DNA of 64,000 bases from Amphiscolops sp. MND2022 (lineage: Eukaryota), in contig OZ076409.1 of the NCBI GenBank assembly GCA_964187785.1, positions 4,466,001 through 4,530,000 on the forward strand, given 5' to 3'. Below, piece after piece: positions 10,385 to 32,964 of the stretch. How positions within the stretch are numbered: the stretch's first letter is position 1; each line of letters starts with the position of its first letter. Below the pieces are notes generated by a model. The model was not told where the DNA came from and did no database searches. It saw only the letters and a program-made list of their open reading frames with translations. A program made the position numbers and the translations under genes.

Positions 10385-10401
10385 ATTTTTTTCTGTGATA
10401 T

Positions 10402-10670
10402 TGTGCTGCTTTTAATGGTTGGTTATTGTTTTTGATGGTCTTATACGCAACTACTAAAAGCGGCTGAGAGACAGGCTAGCTAGCTTACTTTATTACAACT
10501 ATTCCGAGGTGTTAGGAGTAGAACAAAAAGGAAGTCAACTGAATACTGATTATTAGTTTTCTCTCTCTGAAGGAGTAGAGATTTACAATCATTCAATAAC
10601 AAATAAATGTACATTCTAGAACATTCTATAAACATCTAAATACTATTGGTTATTAATGTAGGTCAGTACA
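10402..10670 (-). repeat. 3' LTR (269 bp)
   Basis: Minus strand TGTACTGACC...AGCAGCACA; identical by eye to 32696-32964; minus-strand AATAAA at 10489-10494. Confidence 0.95.
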
Positions 10671-10685
10671 TCCATCCCGGTTTTT
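10671..10685 (-). other. Polypurine tract (imperfect)
   Basis: Minus strand AAAAACCGGGATGGA directly abuts the 3' LTR. Confidence 0.7.
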
Positions 10686-10768
10686 AAATAAAATAAAATT
10701 TTAAAGTAGCATCATTAATTGAAATGAAGAAAAATTTTTTGTTTAAATGTTCTTAGCGTTTCAGCTAG

Positions 10769-11038
10769 TTAACATTTTTCATTTGATGGATGATTGGCAT
10801 AAGTCTCGTTAAGAGTGGTGTAAGTTCGACTCATTGGTGTACCTCGAATTGTCAAAATTTTGATTGACACCTCGTAGGTGCGACTACAGTTCAAAAGCGT
10901 CAAAGTGTTCTTTTTCACTATGCTTTCGTCGGCTTGTTTTTTGAACTGGTAGATGCTCAATTTTATGCTTCTGTTGAAGTTTTGAATGAACTTCGCATTG
11001 AACAAACGTGAGCAAACATCATACGAGTTAGAGGTCAA
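10769..11038 (-). CDS. Possible small accessory ORF of the LTR element (may be the 3' part of a frameshifted ORF)
   Basis: 89-aa ORF on the element strand just upstream of the PPT; no recognised motif. Confidence 0.3.
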   Translation of the reverse strand: MTSNSYDVCSRLFNAKFIQNFNRSIKLSIYQFKKQADESIVKKNTLTLLNCSRTYEVSIKILTIRGTPMSRTYTTLNETYANHPSNEKC

Positions 11039-11720
11039 AGAGTCAAAGAAATAATATTGAGAAAAATTTTTTATCGAACGTGAAATACGTTTGAAAAGAT
11101 TTCAGGTTGTAATTAACTTTGGCGGGTTTGTTATGTAACAAATGTTGAAAACTTTGAGAACTTGGGTCTGTCATTATTCGAATTTGATCTGAACAATGTG
11201 CTTGATCTGATTTGGAGCTGGTTTTGTTGAAATTTGAAAAGATTTGTTGATAATATTTGTGAATTTTTTGTTGGGTAGGATAGCACCGAAAAATAATACT
11301 TATTACTAATTATTCTTTAAAAATAAAGCAAATAAATATCGGTACAGGTGTGAATAAAAATTTTTGGGCAAATAAATGTGGGTGGGGATGAAATTTGAAA
11401 TAATAACTACATAATGAATAATTTAGATGAGAGTTTGAATTCTATGAAATATTAGATGAGTTTGAAACTTTTTCGAAATGTTATCATGCACAATGTTTTT
11501 CTTTGAGTTTTCTTTATTATTACTTATCGATCATCTTTGGCTGAGCATGTGGGTGACGATGGACGATTGGAAGATGGAAGAAGAAGGGTCAGCAGATGAA
11601 TGAAGGTGGGCAACTGTTGGGCGGCTGTGAAGTTGAAGATGGGTGCTGATCTGTTGCTCGTTGAAGATGTGGAATTCGAAGATGGGAGTAGACGGGTGCT
11701 GTTGGTGGCGTCTGTTGATA

Positions 11721-12371
11721 TTAGAAGGAAACGTAAGTATATGTTTTGTGTGGGTAATTATCATCTATAAGTGCTTCTGGGGGATCTTTTTGAAGGTCTT
11801 CGTCAGTGTCATCATTGTCATCTGAGGGCCAATATGAATTTAGACGTTGTTTTTCCATTTCGGAACGCATTCTATTGGATAGAGTTCGTATTAAACGCTT
11901 GGGTTTGATGGTAGTATGTTCTGTTTGGGTAGTGGCATCCTTTCGAGTTGAATAAGTGTCAGGATGTTTATGAATATGGAGATATTGGTCGAAATTTATT
12001 CTTATTTGGAATATTTGGAACATATTAAGCAATATCATCCTTGTAAGATGTGGGTCTGCCTTTTTTTCTGTTCGAAGCTGCGCATTTAATGTCGGTAAAT
12101 GCTTTTTCAGGATCAAGGATCGCAATCGAGCTGAAGAGATTGAAAGAAAAGGAGCTATCGGGCAGTCAATGTCGCCAGAGTGGATAGTTGTCATATTGAA
12201 GAATGAGAAATTTTCGTTGAAAGCTGTAGAAGATTCTTCGGAATTCTTCTTGAATGGGTGACCTGAGAGGAGGAAGGAATGCTGAAGAAGCAGTTGTGAC
12301 GATATTCACCTAAAATAGATTAGTTTGTTTACAATAAAGTTCCTTTGAAAATAGAATTTCGTAGTTGACAT
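11721..12371 (-). pseudogene. Accessory ORF of unknown function (~216 codons with one in-frame TGA, or spliced)
   Basis: ATG at 12371 (MSTTKFYFQRNFIVNKLIYFR*ISSQLL...) is in frame with the 157-aa ORF 11721-12194; single TGA near 12306. Confidence 0.5.
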
Positions 12372-12596
12372 TTTTTTATTGAATTTTGTGATGTTATAAC
12401 TTTTTAATTTTAATAATTAAGTTGTTGTATTTTGGAAGTCTTTTGAAGGGTATGAGTTTTAATTTTTGGGCATTTCAAATACGAAATTTCAAATAGAATT
12501 TCGTAGTTGACATTTTTTTTATTGAATTTTGTGATGTTATAACTTTTTAATTTTAATAATTAAGTTGTTGTATTTTGGAAGTCTTTTGAAGGGTAT
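12349..12596. repeat. ~105-bp direct repeat (12349-12453 and 12491-12596) inside the element
   Basis: aatagaatttcgtagttgacattttttt...gtcttttgaagggtat occurs twice. Confidence 0.9.
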
Positions 12597-12858: not shown

Positions 12859-14151
12859 TTAAGATCGATGCATTTTTTCAATAGTGTAGTTGAATTCGTC
12901 TAAGGATGTGCGAATGCACAAAGCTGATTGGCTAATTCTTGTCGTATCAAATACGATATTTTGTATTATGCTTCGAGCTTGTTCAAGGTTATTTACGATT
13001 TCAGCGATTGTTATAAGAATATCTCGGTTTGGATGATGATACGGTTTTATGATATTCAGGATTTCTGTATATTTCTGTAATTCATCTGTTGGGCGAAAAC
13101 TTTGTGGTTGAGGAATATCATTTTTGGTTTTCTTAGGCGATTCTTGTTTTGCCTTTTTATTTTCTTTGTGATTTCCATTTGTAATAAGTGAAAGTAGGTG
13201 GGAAATAATGAAAATTAATTCATTATTTGAATATCCCTTTTTGATCATTGCGTGGAAATAAGACTTTTCACAGTCTCCCAATGGTTGAGAGGCTATCTGT
13301 TGAAGTGGAGGAAGAGGATCAGATATATGTTGAGGTATATCTTCTTGTAGTAACGAATCGTCGTTTAGAATGAGGTATTCTTGTGGAACAATGATTGGTC
13401 TTTTTGGGTTATCATTTGGAAGGAAGAGAAAACTTTGTTTCAGCGGGTCATAATTTCTAAGTTTTCCTTTTGTTTTGGTATGATCTATTAAATATTCTGA
13501 GTTGAAAGTGAATGGCGATGTATATTTGGAGTTGAAGAATATATAATTATCGGGCTCTTTATATTGAAGGAACTTTTGATAAGTCATATGGTGGGCCTTT
13601 TTGATTTGATATGGCAAAAAATTTGCATCATTTTCTTCTGTTCGAAGATCATATGGAGATGGTCTGAGGAAGTTGTATTGAAGTGAGAAAATTTTCACTT
13701 TATTGTTTAACCACCAATCATATGGGGTAATCAGTTTTGAAGCAATTGATGTATGATAATCATTTTTAAATACTCTGATGATGAATTTGTGTTTTGTTGG
13801 AATCATGTATAACGAAGTTAACTGAGATTGAAATGTGAATTGTTTCGACGAGAGAATAGGAACTAATTCACAATCTCTATCTTCATCTTGTTTAATTGGT
13901 TTTATGAAAGGAGGGCAAGCGCCAGATTCCATAAAAGGTTTATCTGCGGTTATATCTGGGTACTTTCTTTTTTGAGATCTTGTGTTAACATGATCTACTT
14001 GTTCAATTGGGATATTTTCTATAGGGTCTTGAGAGTTGGAGGAAGAGTTATTATCTTCGTTAACATTTTGTTGAATAGTTATATTCAAAGGGGTTGCAAG
14101 CAATTCAGAGGGATTAGAGTTAACTACATCAATTTCGGGCAAGGATTCCAT
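12859..14151 (-). CDS. 430-aa accessory ORF downstream of env, unknown function
   Basis: Long intact ORF in very AT-rich DNA on the element strand; acidic/low-complexity N-terminus, basic RSQKRK patch, helical-looking C-terminus. Confidence 0.8.
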   Translation of the reverse strand: MESLPEIDVVNSNPSELLATPLNITIQQNVNEDNNSSSNSQDPIENIPIEQVDHVNTRSQKRKYPDITADKPFMESGACPPFIKPIKQDEDRDCELVPILSSKQFTFQSQLTSLYMIPTKHKFIIRVFKNDYHTSIASKLITPYDWWLNNKVKIFSLQYNFLRPSPYDLRTEENDANFLPYQIKKAHHMTYQKFLQYKEPDNYIFFNSKYTSPFTFNSEYLIDHTKTKGKLRNYDPLKQSFLFLPNDNPKRPIIVPQEYLILNDDSLLQEDIPQHISDPLPPLQQIASQPLGDCEKSYFHAMIKKGYSNNELIFIISHLLSLITNGNHKENKKAKQESPKKTKNDIPQPQSFRPTDELQKYTEILNIIKPYHHPNRDILITIAEIVNNLEQARSIIQNIVFDTTRISQSALCIRTSLDEFNYTIEKMHRS

Positions 14152-14567: not shown

Positions 14568-17147
14568 CTAGGAGGGATTGAATTTTATAAAGACTTTAGC
14601 AGGACTTTCCGGTACAGCTATTACATTTGACATTATTGGGTCATAGTCCTGAGAATTAATATCGTTTACATTAGTTGGGTGTGTCTTTTGCGGTGATTGA
14701 AATGTTGAGTTCTTACTGGAATATTTAGGAGGTAAATAAGGGGAGTCAGTATCAGAGTGTCTTCGTTTATTGTTTAATTCTTTTCCCGGCAATAGGATAT
14801 TATCATTTTCACTTGTTGTAATTTTGTCTTTAGTGTATATCCGTTTTCGTTTTCCTGTATTATTTAAATCGGTTACCATTTCCGATGTAACTATATTAAA
14901 AAATCCATGGGCTATTGAACTCAAAATGGAAATGTTGCTTTGGAGATTATATTTTATGCTAATTGTTCTGTAGAATTTGAGTAAAAATGTTAAAACTTCT
15001 CTAATGAAAAGGAATGTTGGAAAATAAATTCCACATTGGGTTAAAACATAACATGGGTATCCAAAGAAATTAATGAATGCTTGACTGAACCAGTCAGGGT
15101 TAAAAAGTGGTAAAAGATTTAACAAGTGGTCATGTTCTCCAATCCTTAAATGAATATAGGGATTATGTCCTGAGTATGAGTGTTTTTCATTATGCATTGA
15201 AATGAAATCATAGCTTAATGATTTTCCAAGTAATTGAAGAGTTGTGTCTGAATGTTTAGCAAATAATACTCTATTCCAGAATTGATCTAATTCTGCATTT
15301 GAGTATATACCGGCATCTTGGGCGGTAAATGTATTAGGAGTGATTGTTGTTTTAATTTGGGTAGGTTTAAACATTTGTGGTGCTTCTCGTTTGAGTGGTT
15401 CTGGTGTTAACACATAAAAATCTCCGTCGTTGGAATCTGGATCTAATTCTATTATATTTTGTGGGTTATTTCCACATTCAATTGGTGTTGCGTAGTTAAA
15501 AGTTTGTCTTGTTATTGGGTCAACATACATTATCGTTTCTCTGTAGTGTATAGGAATTCTATCAAAGCATTTATCTGCCTTGTATAGTGGTGATATAAAT
15601 TGAGGGCAATCATACAGCCATGCTGTAGATCCTTCAACGTAGAGAAAGTTACTACGATTTCCAGTTAAAAGAAAACCAGCTAATTGAGGATTTTTAACTG
15701 ACATTGCTAGTGTTGTTAACAGTTGAGTTCTTTCTAGTTCACATATTGTATGAAGAGTGTTTAGTTCTTGTACTGTCATGGATTTAAATACATGATTTAT
15801 TGTGAAATCAATCTTTGTATTAATGTGGGCATCATATTCTAAAGTGGCGAAATTGTTTGATATATTCAATGCAGGGAATATATACCTTTTGTTTGAATCA
15901 TCATATTTTATATTTCCACTAATTGTTTGGTCAATTATTGAGTGTGGTTTTGGTAATCCTGTGTTCATATCAAAACCATCTAAGTATATAACAAAGATGT
16001 CATCATATTGTGTTGAAAATAATGGTTCAGGTTTTCCACAGAAGGTTTGTGCAATTGGGTATATTTCAAATCGAGAAAGGCTTGGATTGCTTACTTTTGA
16101 TTGTGGTGTTTTTTTATTTTAGGGTATTTTGTTCCTTGTATTCCTTCGGTTTGAAGTTTTTGTGTGATGTTTGAAGTTTCAATGAAGGTATCGGTTTCTA
16201 TCCAATATCTATCTTTGATTCGTGTCATTCTACCAATGAATTCTTGAAGTTGAAATATGAGGCAAACTTTTTCATCAAACCATGTTAATGTATATGGAGT
16301 TTTGGTCGTTGGTTTACAAAATCCGTCTGAATGATAACATGGTAATATGTGTCCGTCATGTATTAATTGATTGTTTTTATCGTCATAATCTATTGCGGTG
16401 TTAACAATTCTAAGTTTCCAACTTTGTCGGGTAATTAAATGTTCGCGGTCTGATCGACATCTAGAGTATGTATTCTGTGTAACATTAACTATCCAATCAG
16501 GATAATTTTCGTCAAATACGAAGGTTCCAATATGCCATGTATTTAATTTTTTTTACTCTAAATGGTGTCTGAATTCGTTCAATTGTGTTTTGATAATTAC
16601 TATCGTCGAACAATGAGAAAGAGCTTTGTATATTGTAGTTGTTTAATTCTTCGCTATCAGTCGCGTTTAAATATCTGATCATATTTTTGCATTCAATAGG
16701 GTCCAATATTTTTGGAAGTTCTAATGTGTTTTGTCCCCATTGTAAACGATCATATCGTCTACTAGATGTGAATGTTTGTGAACACCAGACTTTCTCAGTC
16801 TTTATATATGCTTCACATTTAAAGGCTTTTATTCTTTTGGCTTTTGCTCTAACGTAAACTGTTGCTTGGGTTTTTGTGTGTTGTATATCTGAGGGTGCTT
16901 GTTTACATGGTTCTACATTTAATAAACTGAATTGTCTTAAGTTATTTTGTTTTGCACAATCATAATGAGATACCATTAAGTTTAAAATGTTAGGATCTTG
17001 GTCTGAAATATGATTTTCGGAATTGGTGGTGTCAACTTTGGGAACAGTTGAAGGGTGAACTAAAGAGTGAACTATATTTATTATATACGTGTATTTAACA
17101 ACTTGTATTATATATATTAAATGAAAGGTAAAGGTGATTTGGTTCAT
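14568..17147 (-). CDS. env: Envelope glycoprotein, chuvirus-G / herpesvirus-gB-like (class III fusogen), ~860 codons, two frameshifts (~16550, ~16120)
   Basis: Hydrophobic N-terminus; SHYDC...FSLLNVEPC...FKC...VWC; ICELERTQLLTTLAMSVKNPQLAG...EGSTAWLYDC...CFDRIPIHY...YVDPITRQ...PIEC; C-terminal hydrophobic segment and cytoplasmic tail. Fragments 16512-17147 and 14568-15968 are bridged by an open frame (…HILPCYHSDGFCKPT…). Confidence 0.8.
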
Positions 17148-17149
17148 GG

Positions 17150-18617
17150 TTAAAATATTGATCTATAATTGAGTCCTGAGTAGGGATTAAAAAAGTTTAT
17201 ATGTCCTGTTCTAATCTCAGGTAAATCTGCGTCACAAAGGTAGGAAATGGAGGTAACAATGAATGGTGATGGGGTTGTTTTATGTGCTACTCTTGTTGAA
17301 AGAGAGAATGGATGAGGTCCTAACGAGTTGAATGTGACTTCTACTTCAAATTTTAATGTGAGTTGTTGTTCTTGTAATCTTCGTAGTTCTCTTCGTTTTC
17401 TTTGAGTTGAGAGTGAACTATTGTTTATAAATCTTGCAGGTAATACCGTGTATCGAGGATCTTCGTTAAGCGTGCGAACAATTTTTGAGTTAACACGAAT
17501 AGGATATTCGTGAGGATTTGGCGATAGAGGTCTTGAGAATTCTTCTAAAAAATATTCAGGTAATTGTATAGAGGAGTTTGATGCTATTGAACTAGGTGAG
17601 TAAACTCGTGAAAAATTAGCTGCGCTATCTGATATAGTTGCTGGCTCTTCAGAAAGAAGAGAGGCTGTTTCAAATCCTGATGTGATTTGAAATGGTAGTG
17701 ATAGAGAAGATGGTATAGTGTGCTGAGATGAGGAAAGAGAAGAAGTGTCCAATCTGGGTTGGGCGTGTTGTCGAAGTAGTCTTGAGTTTGTACTTGAACT
17801 AGTTAAGGATTGTAATTCTTGAGAATCTCTTTGTTGTTGAGATCGAAGGTTATAATTATGTCTTGGTACTCTAGTACTAGCAGTTGAGTCAGAGTCTTTA
17901 TCTTTATGATACAAATCTGTTAATGAAGAGGTAGTTGTTGAATGTACACGTTGTAATTCAAGCTTGGGATATATTTGAGAAAATGTGAAGGAACTTAGTT
18001 CCGATGGTGAAGGAGTTGGGTATTGTTGTGATTTTTTCGTTGGTGATTTTAATGAAGGTTCTGGTAAAAATGTTATTGGGATATTACTTGATGATGGTAA
18101 ATCAAGATTTTGTGGTAATGTAGGTAAAGGAGTTTTTTTTTGTTTTCGTTGCAGTTGGTACTTTGTGTGGACAAGAATTTATGTATTGTAGGACTGAGCT
18201 AGGATCAGGGATATGAATAGAACGAGTGGTAGTAATCGGTGGAAGAGGAGGTCTATTCAAAATATCTGAAGTATCTTGTGTATTTGGTATTGTAGGTGTT
18301 CCATCATTAGAGTCAGAAAGTGGTGAATTTGTTTCTAAAAATGTTAGATTTCGTGAAATAGGTTGTGATTGAGTTGTTAATATTTGTGGTTGAGTTTGGG
18401 ATATAGGTGTATTAGTGGGTGTTGTTGGTACTCTATCAGGAGTATATGGAGCGGATGGACTGGGATTTGAGGATGAGGAATCCAGTATGTCTGTATCTGA
18501 GTTTAAATATGCTGTATATTCAGGTAATCTTTGGAGTGAATGTGTTGAACTAGAAGAAGAGTTATTTGTAGTTGATGATGGTGAGTGAATATGTCTATCA
18601 ATTTTGAAATCGTTGTG
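17150..18617 (-). CDS. ORF2 between pol and env: ~490-codon S/T/P-rich protein (2-nt deletion at ~18135 in this copy; no ATG at the start of the open frame)
   Basis: Using the undeleted duplicate (22117-22685), the frame reads continuously from HNDFKIDRHIHSPSST through PSAPY and YPKL into the 254-aa ORF 17150-17914. Confidence 0.6.
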
Positions 18618-18786
18618 TTATGATAGTTAGTTTCAGCTTGTAAAATAGTTATAGTTTTATATCAATTAGGATTTCTTTCTTTTATTCTCATTCGTGAAAT
18701 AAATTTCATTTATTTTCGCATTAAGCTTCAAACTTTTTCTTTCTTCCAAACTTTTTTTGTGTGTATTTCTTTCTGTATTCCGTATT

Positions 18787-21700
18787 TCAGCAGGATTTTT
18801 GAGAAAGTGAAATTATATCCTTTTCACCAAGGAAGAGTCGGTAGTCTTTTCTTGGTTGTGGGCGGAAATTGTATCTATTATAGGAGTGTCTTCGGGGATT
18901 AATAAAATTATCATAATCATGAATATCTGATTGGTTATCCAGGGAGGTATTTCGAGGAATTTGTTCTTTTTGTTTATATGGAAATGAAGAATATTGGTTA
19001 AATGGTTCTGGTTGTAAGTCAATCGTGGATGGTATATCCGTTTCTTTATTAAATGTTGTGGAAGGAAATTGTTCTTCGTCTGTAAATTTGTCTTCATCAG
19101 AGTTAATTATTTGATCGTTTGTATTTGAATGACAGTCATTAAATAAATGAGGGTTATATTGTTGTATGAAAGGGAAAATAACTGGTTCTTTTGGATAATA
19201 AGGAATTAAATGATTTCTATGTATGTGCGATGTATAACCATCTTGATTAACAATTTCATATGTTATATCGGAGAGTTTGTTAATAATTTTGAATGGGCCA
19301 ATTCTGAGAGGTTTTAATTTATCGGAAAAATGAACATGGAGAAAATTTCTTTTTAGTACAAATGTACCAATATCTAAGGGTCTTGGATTGTGATATGTTT
19401 TGTTAAAATAAGCATAGGAATTAATCTTTCTTTTTGTGTTTTCATATACCGTTGGTATATCTGTATCATAGCAGTTTCAGTAGCTAAGATCCATTGTGGA
19501 ATTGGAATTCTTGACAATATTGAGAAGTACAATTTCTATATAAATCTCTTTGGAGATTGAGTTCAAAGTTGATTGGAATTCTGGGTATAGTATGGAATAC
19601 TATTTCATATGGAGATAACTTTAATTCAGAAAGTGGTTGTGAATTATGTGCATAAGCATACATATGGACTTGAGTTGACCAATTTTCTGGAGTGTTATGT
19701 AAGAAAAGTCTGAGATGAGTTCCAAGATTTCTGTTTTGATTTTCAACTAAACCATTTGTCCATGGTGCATAAGGAGTTCTTGGTGAATGTCTAATTCCCA
19801 TTGTGGTACAAAGATTTGCAAATTCTGAATTAATATATTCTGTTCCACGGTCGGTAACTAGGTATACAGGAGGTCCAAATTTTGTTATCCAATGATGTAG
19901 TAATGAGTTAACAGCGTTTTGAGCATTATTTTGTTTTATGGGTACTGTTACTACAAAGTGACTAAAAGCGTCTACTATAACGTGAATGTATGAATTTTGA
20001 TTTGATGGTGGGTTTATAGGTCCTTTTGTATCCATTGATATTCGGTAATTAAAATATGAAGCATTTTCTGAGAAGGTTTGTATAGATGCAGTTTGTAATT
20101 TTTGGTTAATATGTTTATTTTGTTGGCATTCAATGCAATCATGGATGAATATTGACATCCATTTATTCAGGTACGGTATGAAGTAAAATTGGTTGAAAGC
20201 TTTGATGGATATTTTTATTCCTGAATGTCCATGAGCATGAAGTTTGTTAAAAGCTGTGTGGAAAAGTTTAAATGGTAGACATATTTTGTCTCTTTGATTC
20301 GGGTTGGAATCGTGAAGATTAGGATAATCTATGTGAATAATTTTTGTATCATGATTAATATATAATTGGTTGAAGAGTTTGTAATATACTAATAAGAAAG
20401 AGTTAGCTGCAATTGTTGGGTCTATTTGTAAGGGTCTTTCATTATTAAGTATCCATTGGTAAACCTTTTGTAAAACAGTATCTTGATTTTGTTGAGCTTT
20501 TATTGTTTCAATGGTTATTTGTGTATCTTCTGGTAGGAAGAAGTAATTAAAATATTTTTTGTATTTGAAAAAGGATGGATCAAAAAATGGAACTTGTTGT
20601 CTACAATAGTCAGATTTGGTAGGATATTGTATAGCAAGGGTGTATTCTTTTACTATGTTCGAGTTTTGTTGTTGGATATTATTTGATGGTGTTATTTCAT
20701 CTTCATCACTAAGAATGTCAGTATCATTAAGAATTGTCGATTGTTGTAAAAGAGATTTTGCTTGTTTTTTTGTAGGCTTTTTATATTTTGATTCGAATGG
20801 AACAATAGATTGAAAAGAGAAGGAATCTAAAGGCTTTATATGTATATCTTCTCCTTTGTTATTTATACGGATGGAGAATTGGTCGTCTCCGTAGTCAGCA
20901 AGGATAGGATGACAATCATTCTTTTGATTATATTTTTTTTCTTCATGTTTTACTAAATAATGTACTGGTTTGAGTTGATTATCTTTCATGATAGAGAAAT
21001 CTATTTGAGGTGGTAATTGTTTGTGTCGTAATTGGTGTACTTGTAGCTGTTCTTTTGTAAAGGTTCTTGAAAGCATATCTGCTACAGTTAAATTTTTTCC
21101 AGGGGTATGAATGATTTTAATTTGGAGAATTTGGTTAATTGCATTTGTGCTCTATAGAATCTAGGACTAAGATTTCCTTTCTTTGCGAAACAATGTAGTA
21201 AAGGCTTGTGATCTGTGAAGAGATATATAGGATGAGGAGATCCGATGATCAAAAATTCATATATTTGTAATGCGTAAACTATTGCAAGAAGTTCTCTGTC
21301 TAAAGTTGAAAGTTTTTGTTCTTGTGTATTGAGAATTCTGGAGTTATAAGAGATTACTTTCATCTTATTTTCTTCGTTCATTTGGAATAAGACTGCGCCT
21401 AAACCTACTAACGAAGCATCTACTGTTATAAAAAATTGATGCGTGGTGTTGGGTATTGTTAATTCAGTGTCTGCTGTCATTGCGTTTTTAAAATTTTGAA
21501 ATAGTTTTTCTAATTCAGGTGTCCATTGAAATTTAACATCATCATGTAGTAATGTATACAATGGTTTAAGGTTTATATGAAGTTTTTCAATGAATTTTGA
21601 ATAAAAGTTAACACTGCCAAGAAATTGCATAACATCTTTCTTTTCTTTTGGTGATGGGATTCTTTTAATAGCTTCAATTTTGGATGGAATTGGTTTGTGT

Positions 21701-22854: not shown

Positions 22855-23551
22855 TCAGCAGGATTTTTGAGAAAGTGAAATTATATCCTTTTCACCAAGG
22901 AAGAGTCGGTAGTCTTTTCTTGGTTGTGGGCGGAAATTGTATCTATTATAGGAGTGTCTTCGGGGATTAATAAAATTATCATAATCATGAATATCTGATT
23001 GGTTATCCAGGGAGGTATTTCGAGGAATTTGTTCTTTTTGTTTATATGGAAATGAAGAATATTGGTTAAATGGTTCTGGTTGTAAGTCAATCGTGGATGG
23101 TATATCCGTTTCTTTATTAAATGTTGTGGAAGGAAATTGTTCTTCGTCTGTAAATTTGTCTTCATCAGAGTTAATTATTTGATCGTTTGTATTTGAATGA
23201 CAGTCATTAAATAAATGAGGGTTATATTGTTGTATGAAAGGGAAAATAACTGGTTCTTTTGGATAATAAGGAATTAAATGATTTCTATGTATGTGCGATG
23301 TATAACCATCTTGATTAACAATTTCATATGTTATATCGGAGAGTTTGTTAATAATTTTGAATGGGCCAATTCTGAGAGGTTTTAATTTATCGGAAAAATG
23401 AACATGGAGAAAATTTCTTTTTAGTACAAATGTACCAATATCTAAGGGTCTTGGATTGTGATATGTTTTGTTAAAATAAGCATAGGAATTAATCTTTCTT
23501 TTTGTGTTTTCATATACCGTTGGTATATCTGTATCATAGCAGTTTCAGTAG
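22855..23551 (-). pseudogene. pol: Integrase C-terminus (GPY/F module) and end of pol, out of frame with the IN core
   Basis: KLKPLRIGPFKIINKLSDITYEI...HIHRNHLIPYY, then RYNFRPQPRKDY...KSC*. Confidence 0.8.
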
Positions 23552-25144
23552 CTAAGATCCATTGTGGAATTGGAATTCTTGACAATATTGAGAAGTACAA
23601 TTTCTATATAAATCTCTTTGGAGATTGAGTTCAAAGTTGATTGGAATTCTGGGTATAGTATGGAATACTATTTCATATGGAGATAACTTTAATTCAGAAA
23701 GTGGTTGTGAATTATGTGCATAAGCATACATATGGACTTGAGTTGACCAATTTTCTGGAGTGTTATGTAAGAAAAGTCTGAGATGAGTTCCAAGATTTCT
23801 GTTTTGATTTTCAACTAAACCATTTGTCCATGGTGCATAAGGAGTTCTTGGTGAATGTCTAATTCCCATTGTGGTACAAAGATTTGCAAATTCTGAATTA
23901 ATATATTCTGTTCCACGGTCGGTAACTAGGTATACAGGAGGTCCAAATTTTGTTATCCAATGATGTAGTAATGAGTTAACAGCGTTTTGAGCATTATTTT
24001 GTTTTATGGGTACTGTTACTACAAAGTGACTAAAAGCGTCTACTATAACGTGAATGTATGAATTTTGATTTGATGGTGGGTTTATAGGTCCTTTTGTATC
24101 CATTGATATTCGGTAATTAAAATATGAAGCATTTTCTGAGAAGGTTTGTATAGATGCAGTTTGTAATTTTTGGTTAATATGTTTATTTTGTTGGCATTCA
24201 ATGCAATCATGGATGAATATTGACATCCATTTATTCAGGTACCGTATGAAGTAAAATTGGTTGAAAGCTTTGATGGATATTTTTATTCCTGAATGTCCAT
24301 GAGCATGAAGTTTGTTAAAAGCTGTGTGGAAAAGTTTAAATGGTAGACATATTTTGTCTCTTTGATTCGGGTTGGAATCGTGAAGATTAGGATAATCTAT
24401 GTGAATAATTTTTGTATCATGATTAATATATAATTGGTTGAAGAGTTTGTAATATACTAATAAGAAAGAGTTAGCTGCAATTGTTGGGTCTATTTGTAAG
24501 GGTCTTTCATTATTAAGTATCCATTGGTAAACCTTTTGTAAAACAGTATCTTGATTTTGTTGAGCTTTTATTGTTTCAATGGTTATTTGTGTATCTTCTG
24601 GTAGGAAGAAGTAATTAAAATATTTTTTGTATTTGAAAAAGGATGGATCAAAAAATGGAACTTGTTGTCTACAATAGTCAGATTTGGTAGGATATTGTAT
24701 AGCAAGGGTGTATTCTTTTACTATGTTCGAGTTTTGTTGTTGGATATTATTTGATGGTGTTATTTCATCTTCATCACTAAGAATGTCAGTATCATTAAGA
24801 ATTGTCGATTGTTGTAAAAGAGATTTTGCTTGTTTTTTTGTAGGCTTTTTATATTTTGATTCGAATGGAACAATAGATTGAAAAGAGAAGGAATCTAAAG
24901 GCTTTATATGTATATCTTCTCCTTTGTTATTTATACGGATGGAGAATTGGTCGTCTCCGTAGTCAGCAAGGATAGGATGACAATCATTCTTTTGATTATA
25001 TTTTATTTCTTCATGTTTTACTAAATAATGTACTGGTTTGAGTTGATTATCTTTCATGATAGAGAAATCTATTTGAGGTGGTAATTGTTTGTGTCGTAAT
25101 TGGTGTACTTGTAGCTGTTCTTTTGTAAAGGTTCTTGAAAGCAT
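23552..25144 (-). CDS. pol: Integrase (HHCC + DDE core), preceded by a long spacer after RNase H
   Basis: HAHGH...CIEC zinc finger; ISMDTKGP, TDRGTEY, NGLVENQN catalytic motifs. Confidence 0.92.
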   Translation of the reverse strand: MLSRTFTKEQLQVHQLRHKQLPPQIDFSIMKDNQLKPVHYLVKHEEIKYNQKNDCHPILADYGDDQFSIRINNKGEDIHIKPLDSFSFQSIVPFESKYKKPTKKQAKSLLQQSTILNDTDILSDEDEITPSNNIQQQNSNIVKEYTLAIQYPTKSDYCRQQVPFFDPSFFKYKKYFNYFFLPEDTQITIETIKAQQNQDTVLQKVYQWILNNERPLQIDPTIAANSFLLVYYKLFNQLYINHDTKIIHIDYPNLHDSNPNQRDKICLPFKLFHTAFNKLHAHGHSGIKISIKAFNQFYFIRYLNKWMSIFIHDCIECQQNKHINQKLQTASIQTFSENASYFNYRISMDTKGPINPPSNQNSYIHVIVDAFSHFVVTVPIKQNNAQNAVNSLLHHWITKFGPPVYLVTDRGTEYINSEFANLCTTMGIRHSPRTPYAPWTNGLVENQNRNLGTHLRLFLHNTPENWSTQVHMYAYAHNSQPLSELKLSPYEIVFHTIPRIPINFELNLQRDLYRNCTSQYCQEFQFHNGS

Positions 25145-25155
25145 ATCTGCTACAG

Positions 25156-25698
25156 TTAAATTTTTTCCAGGGGTATGAATGATTTTAATTTGGAGAATTT
25201 GGTTAATTGCATTTGTGCTCTATAGAATCTAGGACTAAGATTTCCTTTCTTTGCGAAACAATGTAGTAAAGGCTTGTGATCTGTGAAGAGATATATAGGA
25301 TGAGGAGATCCAATGATCAAAAATTCATATATTTGTAATGCGTAAACTATTGCAAGAAGTTCTCTGTCTAAAGTTGAAAGTTTTTGTTCTTGTGTATTGA
25401 GAATTCTGGAGTTATAAGAGATTACTTTCATCTTATTTTCTTCGTTCATTTGGAATAAGACTGCGCCTAAACCTACTAACGAAGCATCTACTGTTATAAA
25501 AAATTGATGCGTGGTGTTGGGTATTGTTAATTCAGTGTCTGCTGTCATTGCGTTTTTAAAATTTTGAAATAGTTTTTCTAATTCAGGTGTCCATTGAAAT
25601 TTAACATCATCATGTAGTAATGTATACAATGGTTTAAGGTTTATATGAAGTTTTTCAATGAATTTTGAATAAAAGTTAACACTGCCAAGAAATTGCAT
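25156..25698 (-). CDS. pol: RT thumb/connection and Ty3-type RNase H (frameshifted fragment)
   Basis: QFLGSVNFY, VDASLVGLGAVL, RELLAIV, TDHKPL; continues after a 1-nt slip into HTPGKNLTVADMLSR. Confidence 0.92.
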   Translation of the reverse strand: MQFLGSVNFYSKFIEKLHINLKPLYTLLHDDVKFQWTPELEKLFQNFKNAMTADTELTIPNTTHQFFITVDASLVGLGAVLFQMNEENKMKVISYNSRILNTQEQKLSTLDRELLAIVYALQIYEFLIIGSPHPIYLFTDHKPLLHCFAKKGNLSPRFYRAQMQLTKFSKLKSFIPLEKI

Positions 25699-25741
25699 AA
25701 CATCTTTCTTTTCTTTTGGTGATGGGATTCTTTTAATAGCT

Positions 25742-28700
25742 TCAATTTTGGATGGAATTGGTTTGTGTTGTTACCAATTTCATGTCCAAGGAAAGTTTGA
25801 GATTTTCTCGAGATGCTATTGTATGTAATTCTTTTATAAGTTCAAACATTTCTTGTTTTTCATTTGCGAGTAATAGAATATCATCTATATAAACTAACGC
25901 AGAGCGTTTGTCTATAAGTGATCTGAAGAAAGTTGACATTTGTTTTGTGAAAAAGTTTGGAAGTCCTTTTAATCCGTAAAATCCACGGATAAAGGCGTAT
26001 AATTTGTCACCGGATGAAAATCCTGTAAGTTTAATTGTTTCTTCATCTAATGGTGTATGAGCATATGCATACATTAGATCAATAGTTGATTTGTATTTTT
26101 TATTTGCTCTAGCTAATTGAGGAGCTAAAGGTTCAATAGGCCAAGATTCAAGTTCTTGGTTAGTGTTTGAGTTTAGATGTCTTGCGTCTAAAACAACTTT
26201 TATTGCCTCTCCTTTTGGGATAATAATTAAAGGGTTTGAAAATGTTGTTCCAATAGTATGTTTTTCATCTGTTGTCGAACCAATTTGTTTTATGATGTTG
26301 TATTTTTCGAGTTCTAGTAAAAGTTTATTTAGTCTATCTCTATAGTGGATAGGTACTTTAGAAGGTCTTTGTGTGTGAAGTTTACAATTATCTTTTATTC
26401 TAATTCGAAAAGGAGTAGAAATCTTTCCTACGTCGTTTTTATGTTTGGCGTAACAGTTTTGGTTGTTAATTAGAATATTGCAGAGATTTACATATTCTGT
26501 ATCGGTTAAATCTGAGTATTCGAAATTGAACTTCTTTATGAATTGTTGGTTTTCTGTAGAATAGGGTAATGGAGGGAAATCTTTTCGAATTTTATCTGAA
26601 GGTCGAAGGTTTCCAGTAACAGAAGGTATAGGAAGTTGAAGTGTTTTGTCGTTAATTTCTATCTTGTTTATTTTTAATAGGGATTGTGGTAGTACCCTAG
26701 TACATAAGTTCATATCTGTATATGGATTTTGTTTAATCGGGGTTGTGGTATCAGGGTGATATGCATGTATTACAGAGTGAATGAGTGAATTTACATCGTT
26801 AACTCTGTAGTGAGGAGGAGTTGTTTGCGTAATAGGTATTTCTATATATCCAATAATTCCTCGTGGTAATGTAGCTGGGTAAGATGTAAAGTTTTGAATT
26901 ATGGTTGCACATGAGTCTTTGCTTTTTTCATTGACTATCATATCTAAGAAATGAAAGATATTTTTAAATTTTTGTAAGAAATATGTATATGGGTTTGTTG
27001 GGTAGAACTTCGTATTATCTTCGAGTTCAAAATGTAGATTTGAATAGTTTTTAATTGGAAAATGTATGGTTTTTCCTGACCTTGGTTTGAAGTGAATTGG
27101 TTCCTTACATTTAATAGTATAAATGTAAGAAATATATGGATAATCTTTTTCTGTAAATGTAGAAAATGTAGTTTTTGTTGAAAGCTTTGGATGTTGTTCT
27201 GTGTACGTCATAATGTTTTGTTGAAAATCAATATTTTGGTTGTGCTTTTTGAAAAAGGGTGTTCCAAGAATGTTGTATTTGATATTTGCTACGGCAAAAT
27301 CGATATTGAAGGATCGTGTTTTGTGATTTACTTCAGTGAAACAGGTCATCGAAATATAATGTATTATTGGTACTTCAGTTTGGTTTGCAACTGTAAGAGT
27401 TTTGGCTCTTTTGTTTTGGAGGTTAGTTGGAACATTGATGTTTAATTGTTTGGAAATTACATGAAATGTTGGTAAATTCAAAACAGATATGGAAGCTCCA
27501 GTATCTAAAAGGAATAAGATTTCTAATTTTGAAGGTAATATGTTGTCATTTGTTTCAGAGGCGTGAATATATAGTGGATAAAACCAACTATAAGGGGTGA
27601 TTGTATTAGCTATTTCAGTCATTTGACAGGTGTGGATTTCAAACTTTGTACTATCATTTTCTTTTGGAGATTTAACGTCTACTTGATTTATTCTGTTTTG
27701 TTGTCTGTTTCTTGAGGGTGTTCTAGATCTTGATCTAAAATCTCTAGGTCTTGTTGGAGATCTATATGGATAATTATATCGTTTAAAGGAGTTTCCTTGT
27801 GATTGAGAACGAGATCTGTATCTTGAGCGAGAATTATATCTGTAATTTGAGTTATTTCTGTATGGAGATCTATATGGAGATCTAGATGGTGTTCTTCTTT
27901 GATAATAATTATCAAATCGAGATCTATACGGACTTCGGGATCGATTATAATATCTTTGTCGAGAGTTTGATCTATAGGTGTTTTGCGAATATTCTCTACT
28001 ATTGCTACGATATCTATCATTGTTTCTGTATCTATCATTATAGTAGTTTTGATTATATTTATTACGATCATTATCTGAGGAATAAGAGTTTGTATTTTCA
28101 TTTCGATTTTCCTGAGGATTATTAGGTTTACTGCGAAAATATTGTACAAAGGATTGTTGAGGAGTTCGTGATCTTTGGTTATTGTATTTCTGGTATTCGT
28201 CATCACGTTGTTTTTGATAACAATTTGAAATACTATGATTATTTTTATGACAATAGGAACAATATTTTCTATACGCTGGTTTGCTTTTGTTATTTGGGTC
28301 TCCAGTTTGAGTAACCATTATCTGATCTTCGTATTCAAATTCTTTTTTGTTAGTATCCTCTTCAAGCGATACTTTGTTTATTTCTAGGGCTAAGTCGTTA
28401 GTTCTGATTTTTTCATTAGCAATATCTTCAGAATCGACATGTCTAACAAGTGTATGAAATGGTATTGAAGGTTCAAGTAATGTTGATACATGTTTAACTT
28501 GTCGTTTATGGGCAAAATCTTTTAACTTCTTTGGTAACCCTTTTGTAAAGATTTCATTATTTTTGAGATTTATGGTAGCTGCATTTTCATTACACCATCC
28601 CTTTTTAACTAATTGTTGTACTCTAAGGGCGAAGTGGCGAACTGTTTCATTATCCTTTTTCATGAGTGACATAGCTTCTACTTGAGCGTAGTAAGCAGTT

Positions 28701-30781
28701 TTTTGAGATGAGAATTGTTTTTTGAATAGTTGTACAAAGGAATTCCATTGTTGTTTATATGATATATGGAGGTTAGTGTACCAATCGAGAGCTGTTCCTA
28801 TTAATGAACATTGTATGTAAGCCATGCGTCTATTATGCCAAGATTTGTACTTTATAGGATTATTTTGAGGTTCTTCACCTATGGCGAAGGTTAATCTTGC
28901 TTCGACTTGTTGTAGATATTCTTCGGGGGTGTAAGAATGGTCCAAACCATCAAAAGGTTTCATAGGTTCTGGTATTGAAGCGGACATGTTTATAAAGGTA
29001 TCTTGTGGCATTGGTAGATATTGGGGTGAAGAAGCTAATTGTTGTGTGAGTGGTGGAGGTATATGTTGGATTGTATTTGGTGAGAATGGGTTAGGATTAG
29101 GGTTAAGATTCGGATTTGGATGCATTCGATACAGAGGATCAGTTGGGATATGTGTAAGTGGAGGATTATGAAGTCTTCTTTGAGAATCCTGTGTAATATT
29201 AGAATAAGAAATGGAAGTACACGGGGTTCCTCGATTTTGAGAATATATATTCTGGGACGTATTGGTATTTGATAATTGTATGAAGGGGTTTTGTGTTGTT
29301 GAAATTGTTTTAATTTGAGAGTGGTTTTGGTTTATATTTGTATTGGTAGTTGTGTTTGATGGAGGATAAAAGTTATAATTAAATGGATCGTAATATCGGT
29401 TGGAAGTTTGAGGATTATCATTAAAATTGTTACTAGAAGTGGTCGATCTGTTTGAGCGAAAGGCGGAGGGAATTGATGGAGGATCATATCTAGGTCGAGT
29501 AATGTATCTTGTAGAATCAGAAGTAGTTCTTGTTGGAGATGCAACATTAGCAGAAGTATTCTGAGCACTAGATGTAGTCATAGTATTATATTGTAATGTA
29601 TCATGGGTTTCATCGTTTATGTCATCTGTATGTGGAAGGTTAAAATTTATATTACGGTTTGGAGATGTATCTAAATGAGATTGAGGACTATGTATATTTT
29701 GTCTTTGATTTACAACTCTAGTGGGAACTCTAAAGGAGTGAGTATGCACTGATGTTGATGTCCCTGTTTGTGATGGATTATATGTTGAGATTGTAGATTC
29801 TTGGGTAGTAAACTCATTATCGTTATAGTTTTCAGGTTGATTTTGTTGTTGGGTTGTATTTTCCTGATCGGTGTTATCATCTTCAGTAGAATTGTTAGTG
29901 TTAAAATGTAAATTTTGTTGATCTTGAGAATTTTGTTGATAGTGGTAAGGTCTATTATCTGGGAATAGATCATTTTCTGAAATTAATAGAGGATCGAAAC
30001 GTATGTAATCTAAGGTTTGTTTTGTAATTAATTGTGGTTTATGAAAGTAAGGGTGTTCATTTTGTTCACTGATGATGAATGGTAAACATTCTTCTAATGT
30101 AAAATGATCTGGAAATGCTGTAAAAGCAGATTGATCTTGTTGAGACCATAATAGTTGATAATTAAATCTGAAGTATTTTCTGAGAAATAAAGATATTACT
30201 TTGATCTGAGGAATTGTTTGGTCATTTAATGTTAGGTCTTTGAAGTAGTGGTAGATGAAATTTTGAATTCGTAATATATCATCTTGTAACCAATGATGAG
30301 GGTTGTCTTCAGGATTAACCAATGTTTCAATAATTTCTACGTCGAAATTGTCTTTGTATCGTTGAAGATCGTCGAGTGCATTTGGACTATATTTTGGAAT
30401 TTCGTGTGCTAAATTGTGGTCTTTTACATTATTTAGAAAAGCATGAAAAACTTGTTTAATAGGAACTTGAAGGTTTATTGGGTTTATTGTTCTTCTGTAT
30501 ATATGAGATGAGTTAAGTCTTTGTTGAGGAAAGGATATTTGAAAAGTTGGGTATTCTTCGGTGATTGTTAAAACTTTATATCTAATATAGAAAAGGTATG
30601 TGTCCAAATGTTCTCTAATAAGAGGGATTGTTTCAATTGTGTGTGGTTCATTTTCAAATGGGAGTGGTTGTGTATAATGTGAAATAATGTTTTGTAGAAA
30701 TGGGTTTAGTTCTAATTTTACAACTTTTGCATTTTTAATGACGGGAGTTTGGAAAGGTAGAGGGGTTGTCGTTGAGGACAT
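25742..30781 (-). CDS. gag-pol: Gag-protease-RT polyprotein (1679 aa), cut short by a deletion/frameshift after the RT palm
   Basis: Capsid-like PFDG...ALDWY...W..F...F; zinc knuckle CSYCHKNNHSISNC (28220-28261); RS-rich tract; protease LDTGAS (~27500); RT VLDARHLN, STIDL, YIDD (25880-25891). Confidence 0.95.
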   Translation of the reverse strand: MSSTTTPLPFQTPVIKNAKVVKLELNPFLQNIISHYTQPLPFENEPHTIETIPLIREHLDTYLFYIRYKVLTITEEYPTFQISFPQQRLNSSHIYRRTINPINLQVPIKQVFHAFLNNVKDHNLAHEIPKYSPNALDDLQRYKDNFDVEIIETLVNPEDNPHHWLQDDILRIQNFIYHYFKDLTLNDQTIPQIKVISLFLRKYFRFNYQLLWSQQDQSAFTAFPDHFTLEECLPFIISEQNEHPYFHKPQLITKQTLDYIRFDPLLISENDLFPDNRPYHYQQNSQDQQNLHFNTNNSTEDDNTDQENTTQQQNQPENYNDNEFTTQESTISTYNPSQTGTSTSVHTHSFRVPTRVVNQRQNIHSPQSHLDTSPNRNINFNLPHTDDINDETHDTLQYNTMTTSSAQNTSANVASPTRTTSDSTRYITRPRYDPPSIPSAFRSNRSTTSSNNFNDNPQTSNRYYDPFNYNFYPPSNTTTNTNINQNHSQIKTISTTQNPFIQLSNTNTSQNIYSQNRGTPCTSISYSNITQDSQRRLHNPPLTHIPTDPLYRMHPNPNLNPNPNPFSPNTIQHIPPPLTQQLASSPQYLPMPQDTFINMSASIPEPMKPFDGLDHSYTPEEYLQQVEARLTFAIGEEPQNNPIKYKSWHNRRMAYIQCSLIGTALDWYTNLHISYKQQWNSFVQLFKKQFSSQKTAYYAQVEAMSLMKKDNETVRHFALRVQQLVKKGWCNENAATINLKNNEIFTKGLPKKLKDFAHKRQVKHVSTLLEPSIPFHTLVRHVDSEDIANEKIRTNDLALEINKVSLEEDTNKKEFEYEDQIMVTQTGDPNNKSKPAYRKYCSYCHKNNHSISNCYQKQRDDEYQKYNNQRSRTPQQSFVQYFRSKPNNPQENRNENTNSYSSDNDRNKYNQNYYNDRYRNNDRYRSNSREYSQNTYRSNSRQRYYNRSRSPYRSRFDNYYQRRTPSRSPYRSPYRNNSNYRYNSRSRYRSRSQSQGNSFKRYNYPYRSPTRPRDFRSRSRTPSRNRQQNRINQVDVKSPKENDSTKFEIHTCQMTEIANTITPYSWFYPLYIHASETNDNILPSKLEILFLLDTGASISVLNLPTFHVISKQLNINVPTNLQNKRAKTLTVANQTEVPIIHYISMTCFTEVNHKTRSFNIDFAVANIKYNILGTPFFKKHNQNIDFQQNIMTYTEQHPKLSTKTTFSTFTEKDYPYISYIYTIKCKEPIHFKPRSGKTIHFPIKNYSNLHFELEDNTKFYPTNPYTYFLQKFKNIFHFLDMIVNEKSKDSCATIIQNFTSYPATLPRGIIGYIEIPITQTTPPHYRVNDVNSLIHSVIHAYHPDTTTPIKQNPYTDMNLCTRVLPQSLLKINKIEINDKTLQLPIPSVTGNLRPSDKIRKDFPPLPYSTENQQFIKKFNFEYSDLTDTEYVNLCNILINNQNCYAKHKNDVGKISTPFRIRIKDNCKLHTQRPSKVPIHYRDRLNKLLLELEKYNIIKQIGSTTDEKHTIGTTFSNPLIIIPKGEAIKVVLDARHLNSNTNQELESWPIEPLAPQLARANKKYKSTIDLMYAYAHTPLDEETIKLTGFSSGDKLYAFIRGFYGLKGLPNFFTKQMSTFFRSLIDKRSALVYIDDILLLANEKQEMFELIKELHTIASRENLKLSLDMKLVTTQTNSIQN

Positions 30782-32136
30782 TTTTAAAGTTTATCTCTTA
30801 TCACTGTAAGTATTTTTTCAAGAAGAACACAAACTATAAATAAGACACAAAACGTGTATGTTGTAATGAGTACTACTGTGGTAACCTTTTCCCACATGTT
30901 ATAATGTGAAGGTTATAACGTTGAAATGTCTTGTATACAGATTTTCTAAGTTCGAGCTCTTGGGTAATTTCTTTGTTGATTTATGATAAAGAAGAAATAT
31001 CGTTGATATCGTTCAATTAATCTTTCAAAATCGTTTGGTGTAGGGTTTTGAAGTGAGCTAATTGGTGGAATGTAAAAGTTGAAAGGATAAATTTCTTGGT
31101 TTGGGTTCATATAAGTTGTATTGTAATTTGAAGTTATTTGAGAAGTTAATATTTTAGGATAGAGAAGAAATAAGTGGGTGCAGTAGGATCTGTATTCAAC
31201 CTCAAAGGATTGCTAACAGAAACTAAATGTTATTTTAAGTCTGGATCACTTTAAGGTGTCTAACATAAGGTTACTGACACGTCCAGAAAAAACTAAGGTT
31301 GTTTTAATTTTAAGTGGGTTGTGTTTTTTAAGACTAAAGGAGTGGAACTCTGAACAATCAACGTCCACTATCCAAAGTCTGATCAATACTGATCAAGATC
31401 AAAATTTGATCTTTGTTTCTTTTACTTTTACTTTTACTTCCTGAGAATTTTGAAGATTCGAACGTAGTTCGGTGTCCTCTCGATTCTCCTTAAAAACGTT
31501 TACACTTAACTAAGGTTTTTAGTCAGTCTTAGAATCAGAGTACGCTGGTGAGGCTGTCTGATTTGCTAAGTCTTACGGGAGGGGATAGGAATTGTGGGTG
31601 CCTGAAAGTAGAAAACTAACTTTACTTTGTTTGTGTTATTTACATGCCTTATTTTAAGTTTTGAAGCAAAAGAGTTGTGAAAATTGTATGTTGTATATTG
31701 TTAAAATAATTGTTTTGTAGGATTATGTTAAAATTATTATTATTGGAAGTACTTGAGGTAAGTTTGAGTTTATTTGTTATTGTTATTTTTGTTGGTTATT
31801 GAAAACATTTTTGAAGTTATTTGTATTATTTAAGTTTTGTGAATTTATTTGTATTGTTTGTCGACAATAGGGAAAGAAAGGGAATAGTGCGTGGTTCTTT
31901 TTGGTAGTTAGTCTTGGTTGCCTTTTTTTGTTTTCAGAGTCTATTTCTGAAATTTTTTTGTAGGAAATTTTGTAGAAAGGCGATCCGAAACGTAAAAGTA
32001 GAAAATCCAGGTTTTCTGCCAACACGAAGTTGATCTTGAGACGTATGTGCTTATAGGTGAGCGGAGTTGGACATGCACTCAGTCAACTATTACACCAGGA
32101 GTCCACCTGACGTTCAAGATAGCAGGATTGAAGAAA

Positions 32137-32273
32137 GTTGCTGTGTCAAAGGTGTTAGAAAACCTTGATAAACCAGACAAATGTTGCTGTGTCAAAGGTG
32201 TTAGAAAACCTTGATAAACCAGACAAATGTTGCTGTGTCAAAGGTGTTAGAAAACCTTGATAAACCAGACAAA
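32137..32273. repeat. 3 x 46-bp tandem repeat in the element 5' leader
   Basis: gttgctgtgtcaaaggtgttagaaaaccttgataaaccagacaaat at 32137, 32183, 32229. Confidence 0.95.
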
Positions 32274-32675
32274 CATCAAAGAACTGTTTCAACAAGCTTC
32301 CGGATTAGCTGTGATAAATCAGTATAGAGAACAGAACTGTGTCACTTTGGATAAATCAGTCTAGAAAAAGAAGAAAAACAGAACTGTGTCACAATGGATA
32401 AATCAGTCCGAAATGAAACCGTTTCAACGTATTGGAAAACGTGATAAACCGGTAGTGAAGAAAATTTGTTATAGTAAAGTTGATTGTTGTAGTGGAGAAA
32501 TTGTGTTTCGAACGATGATGTATTTATTGATGAAATTTAGAAAGTCACAGACCAAACTTTCAAGAAATTCTAGAAAGATTTCACTGCAATTCCAGAGAAT
32601 TTCAAATATGGAGAGTGGTATTTGTATGATTGTTGAGAGAAGAGAAATCATCCAGGAGAAAAGGCAAAAGAAAAA

Positions 32676-32692
32676 TTTTACAAGTCGCACCA
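32676..32692 (-). other. Primer-binding site (priming tRNA not identified)
   Basis: Minus strand TGGTGCGACTTGTAAAA starts 3 nt after the 5' LTR; TGG pairs with tRNA CCA. Confidence 0.75.
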
Positions 32693-32695
32693 AAT

Positions 32696-32964
32696 TGTGC
32701 TGCTTTTAATGGTTGGTTATTGTTTTTGATGGTCTTATACGCAACTACTAAAAGCGGCTGAGAGACAGGCTAGCTAGCTTACTTTATTACAACTATTCCG
32801 AGGTGTTAGGAGTAGAACAAAAAGGAAGTCAACTGAATACTGATTATTAGTTTTCTCTCTCTGAAGGAGTAGAGATTTACAATCATTCAATAACAAATAA
32901 ATGTACATTCTAGAACATTCTATAAACATCTAAATACTATTGGTTATTAATGTAGGTCAGTACA
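32696..32964 (-). repeat. 5' LTR (269 bp)
   Basis: Identical by eye to 10402-10670; TG...CA. Confidence 0.95.

Follow-up and report, generated by a model that had tools for sequence, protein, structure and literature searches.

A giant, env-bearing Ty3/gypsy endogenous retrovirus-like element with conserved additional genes in the genome of Amphiscolops sp. MND2022

Ty3/gypsy elements carrying an Env of the F type or of a gB/Chuviridae-like type have been described across metazoan phyla (Chary and Hayashi, eLife 2026, PMC13524379), and the errantiviruses treated there have three open reading frames (ORFs), gag, pol and env, with env directly after pol. Here, we analyze a stretch of 64,000 nucleotides from Amphiscolops sp. 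MND2022 (assembly GCA_964187785.1, contig OZ076409.1, positions 4,466,001 to 4,530,000; hereafter the window), of which positions 10402-32964 are occupied, on the minus strand, by a long terminal repeat (LTR) retroelement. We regard it as highly probable that this element represents a giant endogenous retrovirus of the Ty3/gypsy type (Metaviridae, errantivirus-like) that bears an env gene, in a copy that is defective and was inserted recently. As in the errantiviruses described in PMC13524379, a Ty3/gypsy pol is followed by an env, whose product here is a predicted class III fusogen, nearly identical copies are numerous, and a sequence resembling a primer-binding site (PBS) of the transfer RNA (tRNA) type is present. 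Unlike these three-ORF elements, it extends over ~18.5 kb and has six conserved ORFs, with pol and env separated by an ORF2 of 1.5 kb and two genes past env, so that a fusogen gene does follow pol, but not directly. Since the search described in PMC13524379 kept regions of at most 10 kb in which, outside insects, POL and ENV were no more than 1 kb apart, it would probably miss a layout such as the present one, and similar lineages may therefore be under-counted.

Several other systems resemble the element in part. Burro of planarians is likewise a giant gypsy-type provirus of animals that shows env homology, offers additional coding capacity and occurs in thousands of copies, but according to its description in PMC6431247, it exceeds 30 kb, has env in frame between gag and pol within one huge polyprotein, and carries recognizable host-like domains. 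In the present element, by contrast, env is a separate ORF after pol, the length is 18.1-18.8 kb and no known counterpart was found for the additional proteins. In layout, the element resembles complex retroviruses and the foamy-like endogenous retroviruses (ERVs) of fish, which bear accessory ORFs and reach up to 17 kb (PMC6431247): it, too, has a long leader, accessory genes flanking env and a genome rich in A. An earlier note on this DNA, made from the sequence alone, had credited Metaviridae with usually at most one ORF after pol, which proved too strict in view of the several LTR elements with extra ORFs described in the same source. In mosquitoes, BEL/Pao elements that have captured a Chuviridae glycoprotein (Dezordi et al. 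2020, PMC7642597; mentioned in PMC13524379) combine the same glycoprotein type with a BEL/Pao instead of a Ty3/gypsy backbone, and no accessory genes are noted for them as reported. The LTR elements of bdelloid rotifers also have coding capacity beyond gag and pol, in the form of a single, varied ORF3 that often specifies an enzyme (GDSL lipase, DEDDy exonuclease; PMC5408684), whereas three non-enzymatic unknown proteins and an Env are found here. Finally, Cer1 of C. elegans has a post-pol ORF that represents the C-terminal part of CERV and receives its start by splicing to exons of the gag region (PMC10309623). ORF2 of the present element similarly has no start codon of its own; this likeness is one of arrangement, and Cer1, as described there, has no env and is much smaller. 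Literature searches covering open-access text yielded no description of an 18-kb, six-gene gypsy element like the present one. Gypsy elements with an env and giant elements with additional ORFs have both been known before, and the chief interest of this locus lies in its conserved accessory genes and in the ORF2-env arrangement.

The element measures 22,563 bp with an internal duplication and 18,497 bp without it, in agreement with the ~18.5 kb that the earlier note had given for the unduplicated form. Direct repeats of 271 nt with 100% identity (10400-10670 and 32694-32964) delimit it. Within these, the LTRs proper, whose ends we set from the 4-bp target-site duplications of sister copies, match at 269/269 positions and run TGTACTG...GCAGCACA, which bore out the short LTRs seen in the earlier note. 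Between them follow, in order, a 1.9-kb leader, gag-pro-pol, ORF2, env, ORF4, ORF5 and ~1 kb of non-coding sequence (Table 1). Besides the family of the window copy (A), three further families (A2, B and C) were included, with one copy of each examined; LTR termini are TG..CA in A, A2 and B and TG..TA in C. Target-site duplications of 4 bp are exact in four of the five copies examined, and that of the window copy is imperfect (ATAC versus ATAT, three of four bases matching). The conserved TGGTGCGAC after the LTR supports a putative PBS, as had been proposed from the sequence; its counterpart at the 3' LTR, a CCGG-type motif resembling a polypurine tract (PPT), stood with the qualification that its purine richness is only moderate. 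A tRNA partner for the PBS did not emerge from a pattern search (54 matches compared with 41 in the control, and a tRNA in none of the four loci tested), and the TGGTGCGAC string is missing from a published PBS table. The leader holds eight upstream ATGs compared with ~26 expected from base composition.

Table 1. Features of the element, with positions in the window
Feature	Position	Strand	Remarks
5' LTR	32696..32964	-	269 nt, TG..CA, identical to 3' LTR
PBS-like site TGGTGCGAC	32684..32692	-	3 nt past 5' LTR; core kept in families A, B and C
5' leader, ~1.9 kb	30782..32683	-	81% identity to family A2 leader
gag-pro-RT, single frame	25745..30781	-	1,682 codons; N-terminal Gag extension, capsid-like domain, CCHC knuckle, R/S/Y-rich stretch, DTG protease, YIDD RT
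pol piece, RT end and RNase H	25159..25770	-	RT_RNaseH E 1.8e-25
pol piece, bridge, integrase zinc finger and catalytic core	23555..25219	-	rve E 9e-18, Integrase_H2C2
pol piece, integrase C-terminal SH3-like / GPF module	22858..23544	-	Integrase_p58_C and SH3_Tf2-1, both slightly under Pfam cut-offs
Tandem duplication, copy 1	22114..26181	-	mid-RT to first third of ORF2
Tandem duplication, copy 2	18048..22113	-	99.83% identity to copy 1 over 4,068 bp; 5 mismatches, 1 gap
ORF2, S/T/P-rich, methionine-free	17153..18617	-	two frames in window copy, break near 18137
env, class III-type fusion glycoprotein	14571..17147	-	PF24664; three frames in window copy, breaks near 16554 and 16115
ORF4, 430 aa (431 codons), coiled-coil-like C-terminus	12862..14151	-	intact in window copy
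ORF5, 157 aa, fast-evolving	11724..12194	-	73% identity A versus A2
PPT-like motif	10671..10685	-	adjoins 3' LTR; related CCGG-centred motif likewise placed in families A, B and C
3' LTR	10402..10670	-	269 nt, pairs with 5' LTR

Genes of the window copy were read as stop-to-stop frames of the minus strand and compared with Pfam, which revealed Retrotrans_gag, RVT_1, RT_RNaseH, Integrase_H2C2, rve and Integrase_p58_C. Along an uninterrupted 2,321-codon frame, the Pfam matches place gag at 636-707, reverse transcriptase (RT) at 1537-1662, RNase H (RH) at 1725-1857 and integrase (IN) at 2144-2308, in the order protease (PR)-RT-RH-IN, and the translation shows the DTG and YIDD motifs, the acidic residues of RNase H, HHCC and DDE. 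Gag was recognized by Retrotrans_gag (E 1e-7) and contains a CX2CX4HX4C motif. Among solved structures, RT-RH matched Ty3 best (4ol8, E 2.6e-38), compared with 1.6e-26 for a caulimovirus polyprotein and 9e-19 for foamy virus, in a comparison that held no BEL/Pao structure; the best match of the integrase was the Ty3 polyprotein as well (7q5b), by a narrow margin. Ty3 far outscored foamy and gamma-retroviral RT, and because RT-RH is closest to Ty3 among these structures, the element is probably not a member of Retroviridae. Domain order, motifs and the RT-RH match support the Ty3/gypsy (Metaviridae) affinity put forward in the earlier note. Its description of gag-pro-pol as one frame held for gag, protease and RT, but in the window copy pol is broken into four pieces by frameshifts; in the copies compared, a single frame spans gag and pol in A, A2 and B, and the two overlap in different frames in C. 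A chromodomain was not found with Pfam. Assignment to the Troyka superfamily was rejected, as Troyka is described as having CG..CG ends and 3-bp duplications (PMC12440569). The capsid-like domain is preceded by an extension of ~640 residues rich in asparagine, glutamine, serine and threonine, and the Gag zinc knuckle is followed, ahead of the protease, by a long RS-domain-like stretch rich in arginine, serine and tyrosine (window 27700-28300, minus strand).

The six-gene plan recurs beyond the window copy. Families A, A2, B and C are 18.1-18.8 kb long and carry six ORFs in the order gag-pol-ORF2-env-ORF4-ORF5, with Env proteins of A2, B and C being 94%, 60% and 54% identical to that of A, respectively. 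ORF2 was found in at least 95 copies and ORF4 in at least 97; both align as proteins across families, with 36-44% identity for ORF2 and 35-43% for ORF4. The openness of the frames differs among copies, and in the A2 copy examined all six are uninterrupted. The earlier note had named, as the observation that would speak against a lineage with its own accessory genes, that other copies lack the post-pol ORFs, in which case these would be nested or captured DNA of the window copy alone. The window copy does have a private rearrangement of 4 kb, but the same ORFs stand in the same order in every other copy and family examined and 18.1-18.5 kb is the family norm, which already refutes this explanation and leaves it a negligible chance.

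Complementarily, we evaluated coding constraint by comparing families A and A2, whose differences fall mostly on third codon positions. The ratio of nonsynonymous to synonymous substitution rates (dN/dS) was 0.13 for ORF2, 0.08 for env, 0.08 for ORF4, 0.18-0.22 for ORF5, 0.07 for RH-IN and 0.12 for gag-pro-RT. Out-of-frame controls, obtained from the same alignments shifted by one or two bases, gave 1.0-3.0, with 1.0 and 3.0 for ORF5. These values bear on the possibility that the post-pol frames are not genes and stand open by chance because a G-poor sense strand offers few stop codons. The composition is indeed suited to this (~11% G and 38% A in the sense strand, plus-strand GC skew of 0.26-0.40), and the 110-codon frame at 10772-11101 proved unconserved. 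Yet the protein-level alignment of ORF2 and ORF4 across families, the dN/dS of 0.08-0.22 in frame as opposed to 1.0-3.0 off frame, and the lack of any stop in 80 of 95 scored copies of ORF2 and 85 of 97 of ORF4 already contradict it for these two genes, and we consider chance openness very improbable. Judging from these substitution patterns, ORF2, ORF4 and ORF5 are real genes under purifying selection, so that conserved genes beyond gag, pol and env, as in complex retroviruses, are present. The accessory genes and complex layout suggested in the earlier note were thus upheld, with a smaller count of genes after env: of the three to four further ORFs it had listed, ORF4 and ORF5 are conserved, and the frame at 10772-11101 was dropped because it is broken in A2.

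In ORF4, the N-terminus is variable, the center is conserved and holds most of the invariant residues, and the C-terminus is helical. A profile of this protein returned 619 matches among 1.84 billion representatives, those listed being mostly short fragments without other domain context. For ORF5, A and B have a 24-residue motif in common, which occupies an equivalent position in both proteins (hhalign E 0.0015, probability 16%), and nothing shared with C was found. The spacer between the two genes contains a perfect 83-nt direct repeat (12371-12453 and 12514-12596, 143 nt from start to start).

ORF2 spans ~490 codons (489 in the typical open frame), 40% of which encode serine, threonine or proline. 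Methionine is absent from it in all four families, as opposed to ~1.1% in the remaining proteins of the element. At the nucleotide level, a run free of ATG in all three frames ends exactly at the env ATG, extending over 1,155 nt in A, 1,180 nt in A2 and ~905 nt in C, and among dinucleotide shuffles of these runs, zero or one per 1,000 were free of ATG. The ORF2 stop lies 2 nt (A), 29 nt (A2) or 1 nt (C) upstream of the env ATG. A methionine-free ORF2 within an ATG-free run that ends at the env start suggests, as read from the sequence, that ORF2 and env may be coupled on a shared messenger. Database proteins spanning ORF2 begin with M where the copies examined have non-ATG codons and are uninformative on the true start; acceptor-like motifs near the ORF2 start, judged by eye, lack positional conservation. 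ORF2 of A, A2 and B has a PSAP motif, which is a lead only: other enveloped viruses use P(T/S)AP as a motif for late budding.

The env gene forms one 863-codon frame in a sister copy. In all four families, its product matches PF24664, the Monjiviricetes fusion glycoprotein of chuvirus/mononegavirus type, which is gB-like, with 82-96 bits at a cut-off of 27. Foldseek searches with an AlphaFold model of Env gave xinmo-, chu- and rhabdo-like glycoproteins as top viral matches (E 4e-13, low template modelling (TM) scores), and the top PDB matches listed were all herpesvirus gB (E ~1e-5, TM-scores 0.1-0.17). A phage collection queried with env returned no matches. Both genes named ORF2 and env in the earlier note are present, and the window copy has them split into two and three frames, respectively.

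The families are abundant in the host assembly (1.07 Gb in 1,929 contigs). LTR-PBS junctions numbered 1,193 for A and A2, which were counted jointly with one mismatch allowed, 1,819 for B and 66 for C. LTR starts of A and A2, counted in the same way, amounted to 2,406, or about two per junction; solo LTRs of A/A2 therefore seem rare, which is unusual for a family so abundant. On the contig of the window, 98 listed LTR starts formed 33 same-strand pairs with spacings of 16.7-22.3 kb (median 18,191 bp, close to the unduplicated length of the window copy), leaving 32 unpaired. Pairwise divergence among three copies of family A is ~1.2-1.7%. If most junctions belong to full-length copies, the three counted groups would represent ~56 Mb of the 1.07-Gb genome.

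Copy numbers of this order, together with tandem arrays formed at the level of the host, need no infection, and they would fit an intracellular retrotransposon amplified in the germline only, with env and the accessory genes now playing no role in transmission. The dN/dS of 0.08 for env and its open frame in 49 of the 50 scored family B copies are hard to explain for a dispensable Env, and we judge this alternative rather improbable. Side observations on the genomic setting of individual copies include a tandem array of family B with a unit of 18,204 bp, in which the LTRs stand back to back with the same spacer of 123 nt between them at the two junctions examined (L028 2525-3487, L030 730-1692). 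The family B copy examined is nested in the integrase region of another related element (L025 1-2218, L027 353-1400), and only 131 nt separate the A2 copy examined from the 3' end of another A2 copy upstream of it (L031 1-890).

The window copy itself is defective despite its identical LTRs. Compared with a sister copy, pol carries frameshifting indels near 25764, 25186 and 19452, the first two of which recur in the second duplicated unit, while 19452 sits inside that unit; including the breaks in ORF2 and env (Table 1), several of these lesions fall in A-runs. The tandem duplication adds a second, nearly identical 4,068-bp segment. Of 2,109 candidate matches, 40 were scored, and among these only the window contains the complete junction, the other 39 matching one half; on this evidence the duplication is probably a private rearrangement of the window copy. 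Alternatively, the assembly might have merged reads from two element copies, which is plausible with more than 1,000 near-identical copies, a unique junction and several frameshifts in A-runs, where long reads often err. The two units, however, differ by 5 bases and 1 gap, far below the ~1.2% between separate copies, and a second 22.1-kb copy is present on the same contig; we regard an artefact as unlikely, if more conceivable than the other alternatives considered here. That second overlong family A copy (LTR spacing 22,107 bp, ~4 kb in excess) does not carry the duplication junction of the window.

For the lineage to which this copy belongs, anatomy, homology and selection outline how an intact element may work. 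Its full-length RNA would yield a single Gag-Pro-Pol polyprotein, reverse transcription would be framed by the putative tRNA-type PBS and the PPT-like motif, and integrase would leave 4-bp target duplications. Env, whose homology points to a class III fusogen of chuvirus/mononegavirus G type, would permit cell-to-cell spread, and selection indicates that the products of ORF2, ORF4 and ORF5 are needed by the lineage. ORF2 and env may be expressed from a single subgenomic messenger, with the start of ORF2 supplied by an AUG spliced in from upstream, as in Cer1 CERV, or by a non-AUG codon. Ribosomes might then reach env by leaky scanning across the ATG-free ORF2 or by reinitiation past the adjacent ORF2 stop. 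More speculatively, additional subgenomic RNAs could serve to express ORF4 and ORF5 as regulatory or accessory proteins; a regulatory role for either is a guess. Beyond the classification of the window copy, we propose tentatively, and with clearly less confidence, that these families form a Metaviridae clade with an independently evolved complex-retrovirus plan, comprising three lineage-specific accessory proteins and a startless ORF2 translationally coupled to a class III Env, which might still be replicating, possibly infectious, and make up ~5% of the host genome.

Several results weigh against the reading of the window copy and its lineage given here. With frameshifts in pol, ORF2 and env, the window copy cannot be autonomous. 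The AlphaFold model of Env is poor, with a predicted local distance difference test (pLDDT) score of 42 (60-80 for residues 90-420) and TM-scores of 0.1-0.3, so the fold evidence is supportive only. Neither ORF2 nor ORF5 has a Pfam, PDB or Atlas match. ORF4 has no Pfam match or usable Atlas match, a PDB profile search with it matched designed coiled coils only, and its AlphaFold model was unreliable (pLDDT 42.8) and was kept out of the fold search. The proposed coupling fits family B less well, in which ORF2 and env overlap by 55 nt and an ATG occurs 285 nt upstream of that of env. Moreover, the ATG-free run was picked after being seen and lies in a locally G-poor region (9%), so its significance is moderate. 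Finally, a simple consensus donor score revealed no convincing splice donor near the gag ATG.

The base composition of the element sets it apart from its surroundings. Plus-strand GC skew drops from the values given above to near 0 outside the element, which is thereby sharply marked; the low-G, A-rich sense strand (window 10402-32964) is matched by 8-11% G in families B and C, and the host flanks are symmetric. Deaminase-type hypermutation was rejected, as an excess of G/A changes is not seen between copies (85 A/G versus 111 C/T). No Rfam match was obtained in the window, and no Pfam match for the window ORFs flanking the element. Just beyond the element, a tandem array of 17- and 27-nt units with GGGACGAATTGTCGCTT occupies window positions 34375-34560, and two neighboring 64-nt units, 70% alike, lie at 35435-35562.

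Retroviral complexity, that is, the possession of accessory or regulatory genes expressed from subgenomic RNAs, is usually seen as a trait of vertebrate Retroviridae. The methionine-free ORF2 running into env offers a concrete hypothesis of translational control. Together, a Ty3/gypsy lineage with an Env and three conserved unknown proteins, present in thousands of very young copies, would provide an independent natural case in which to ask why such genes arise and what they do.

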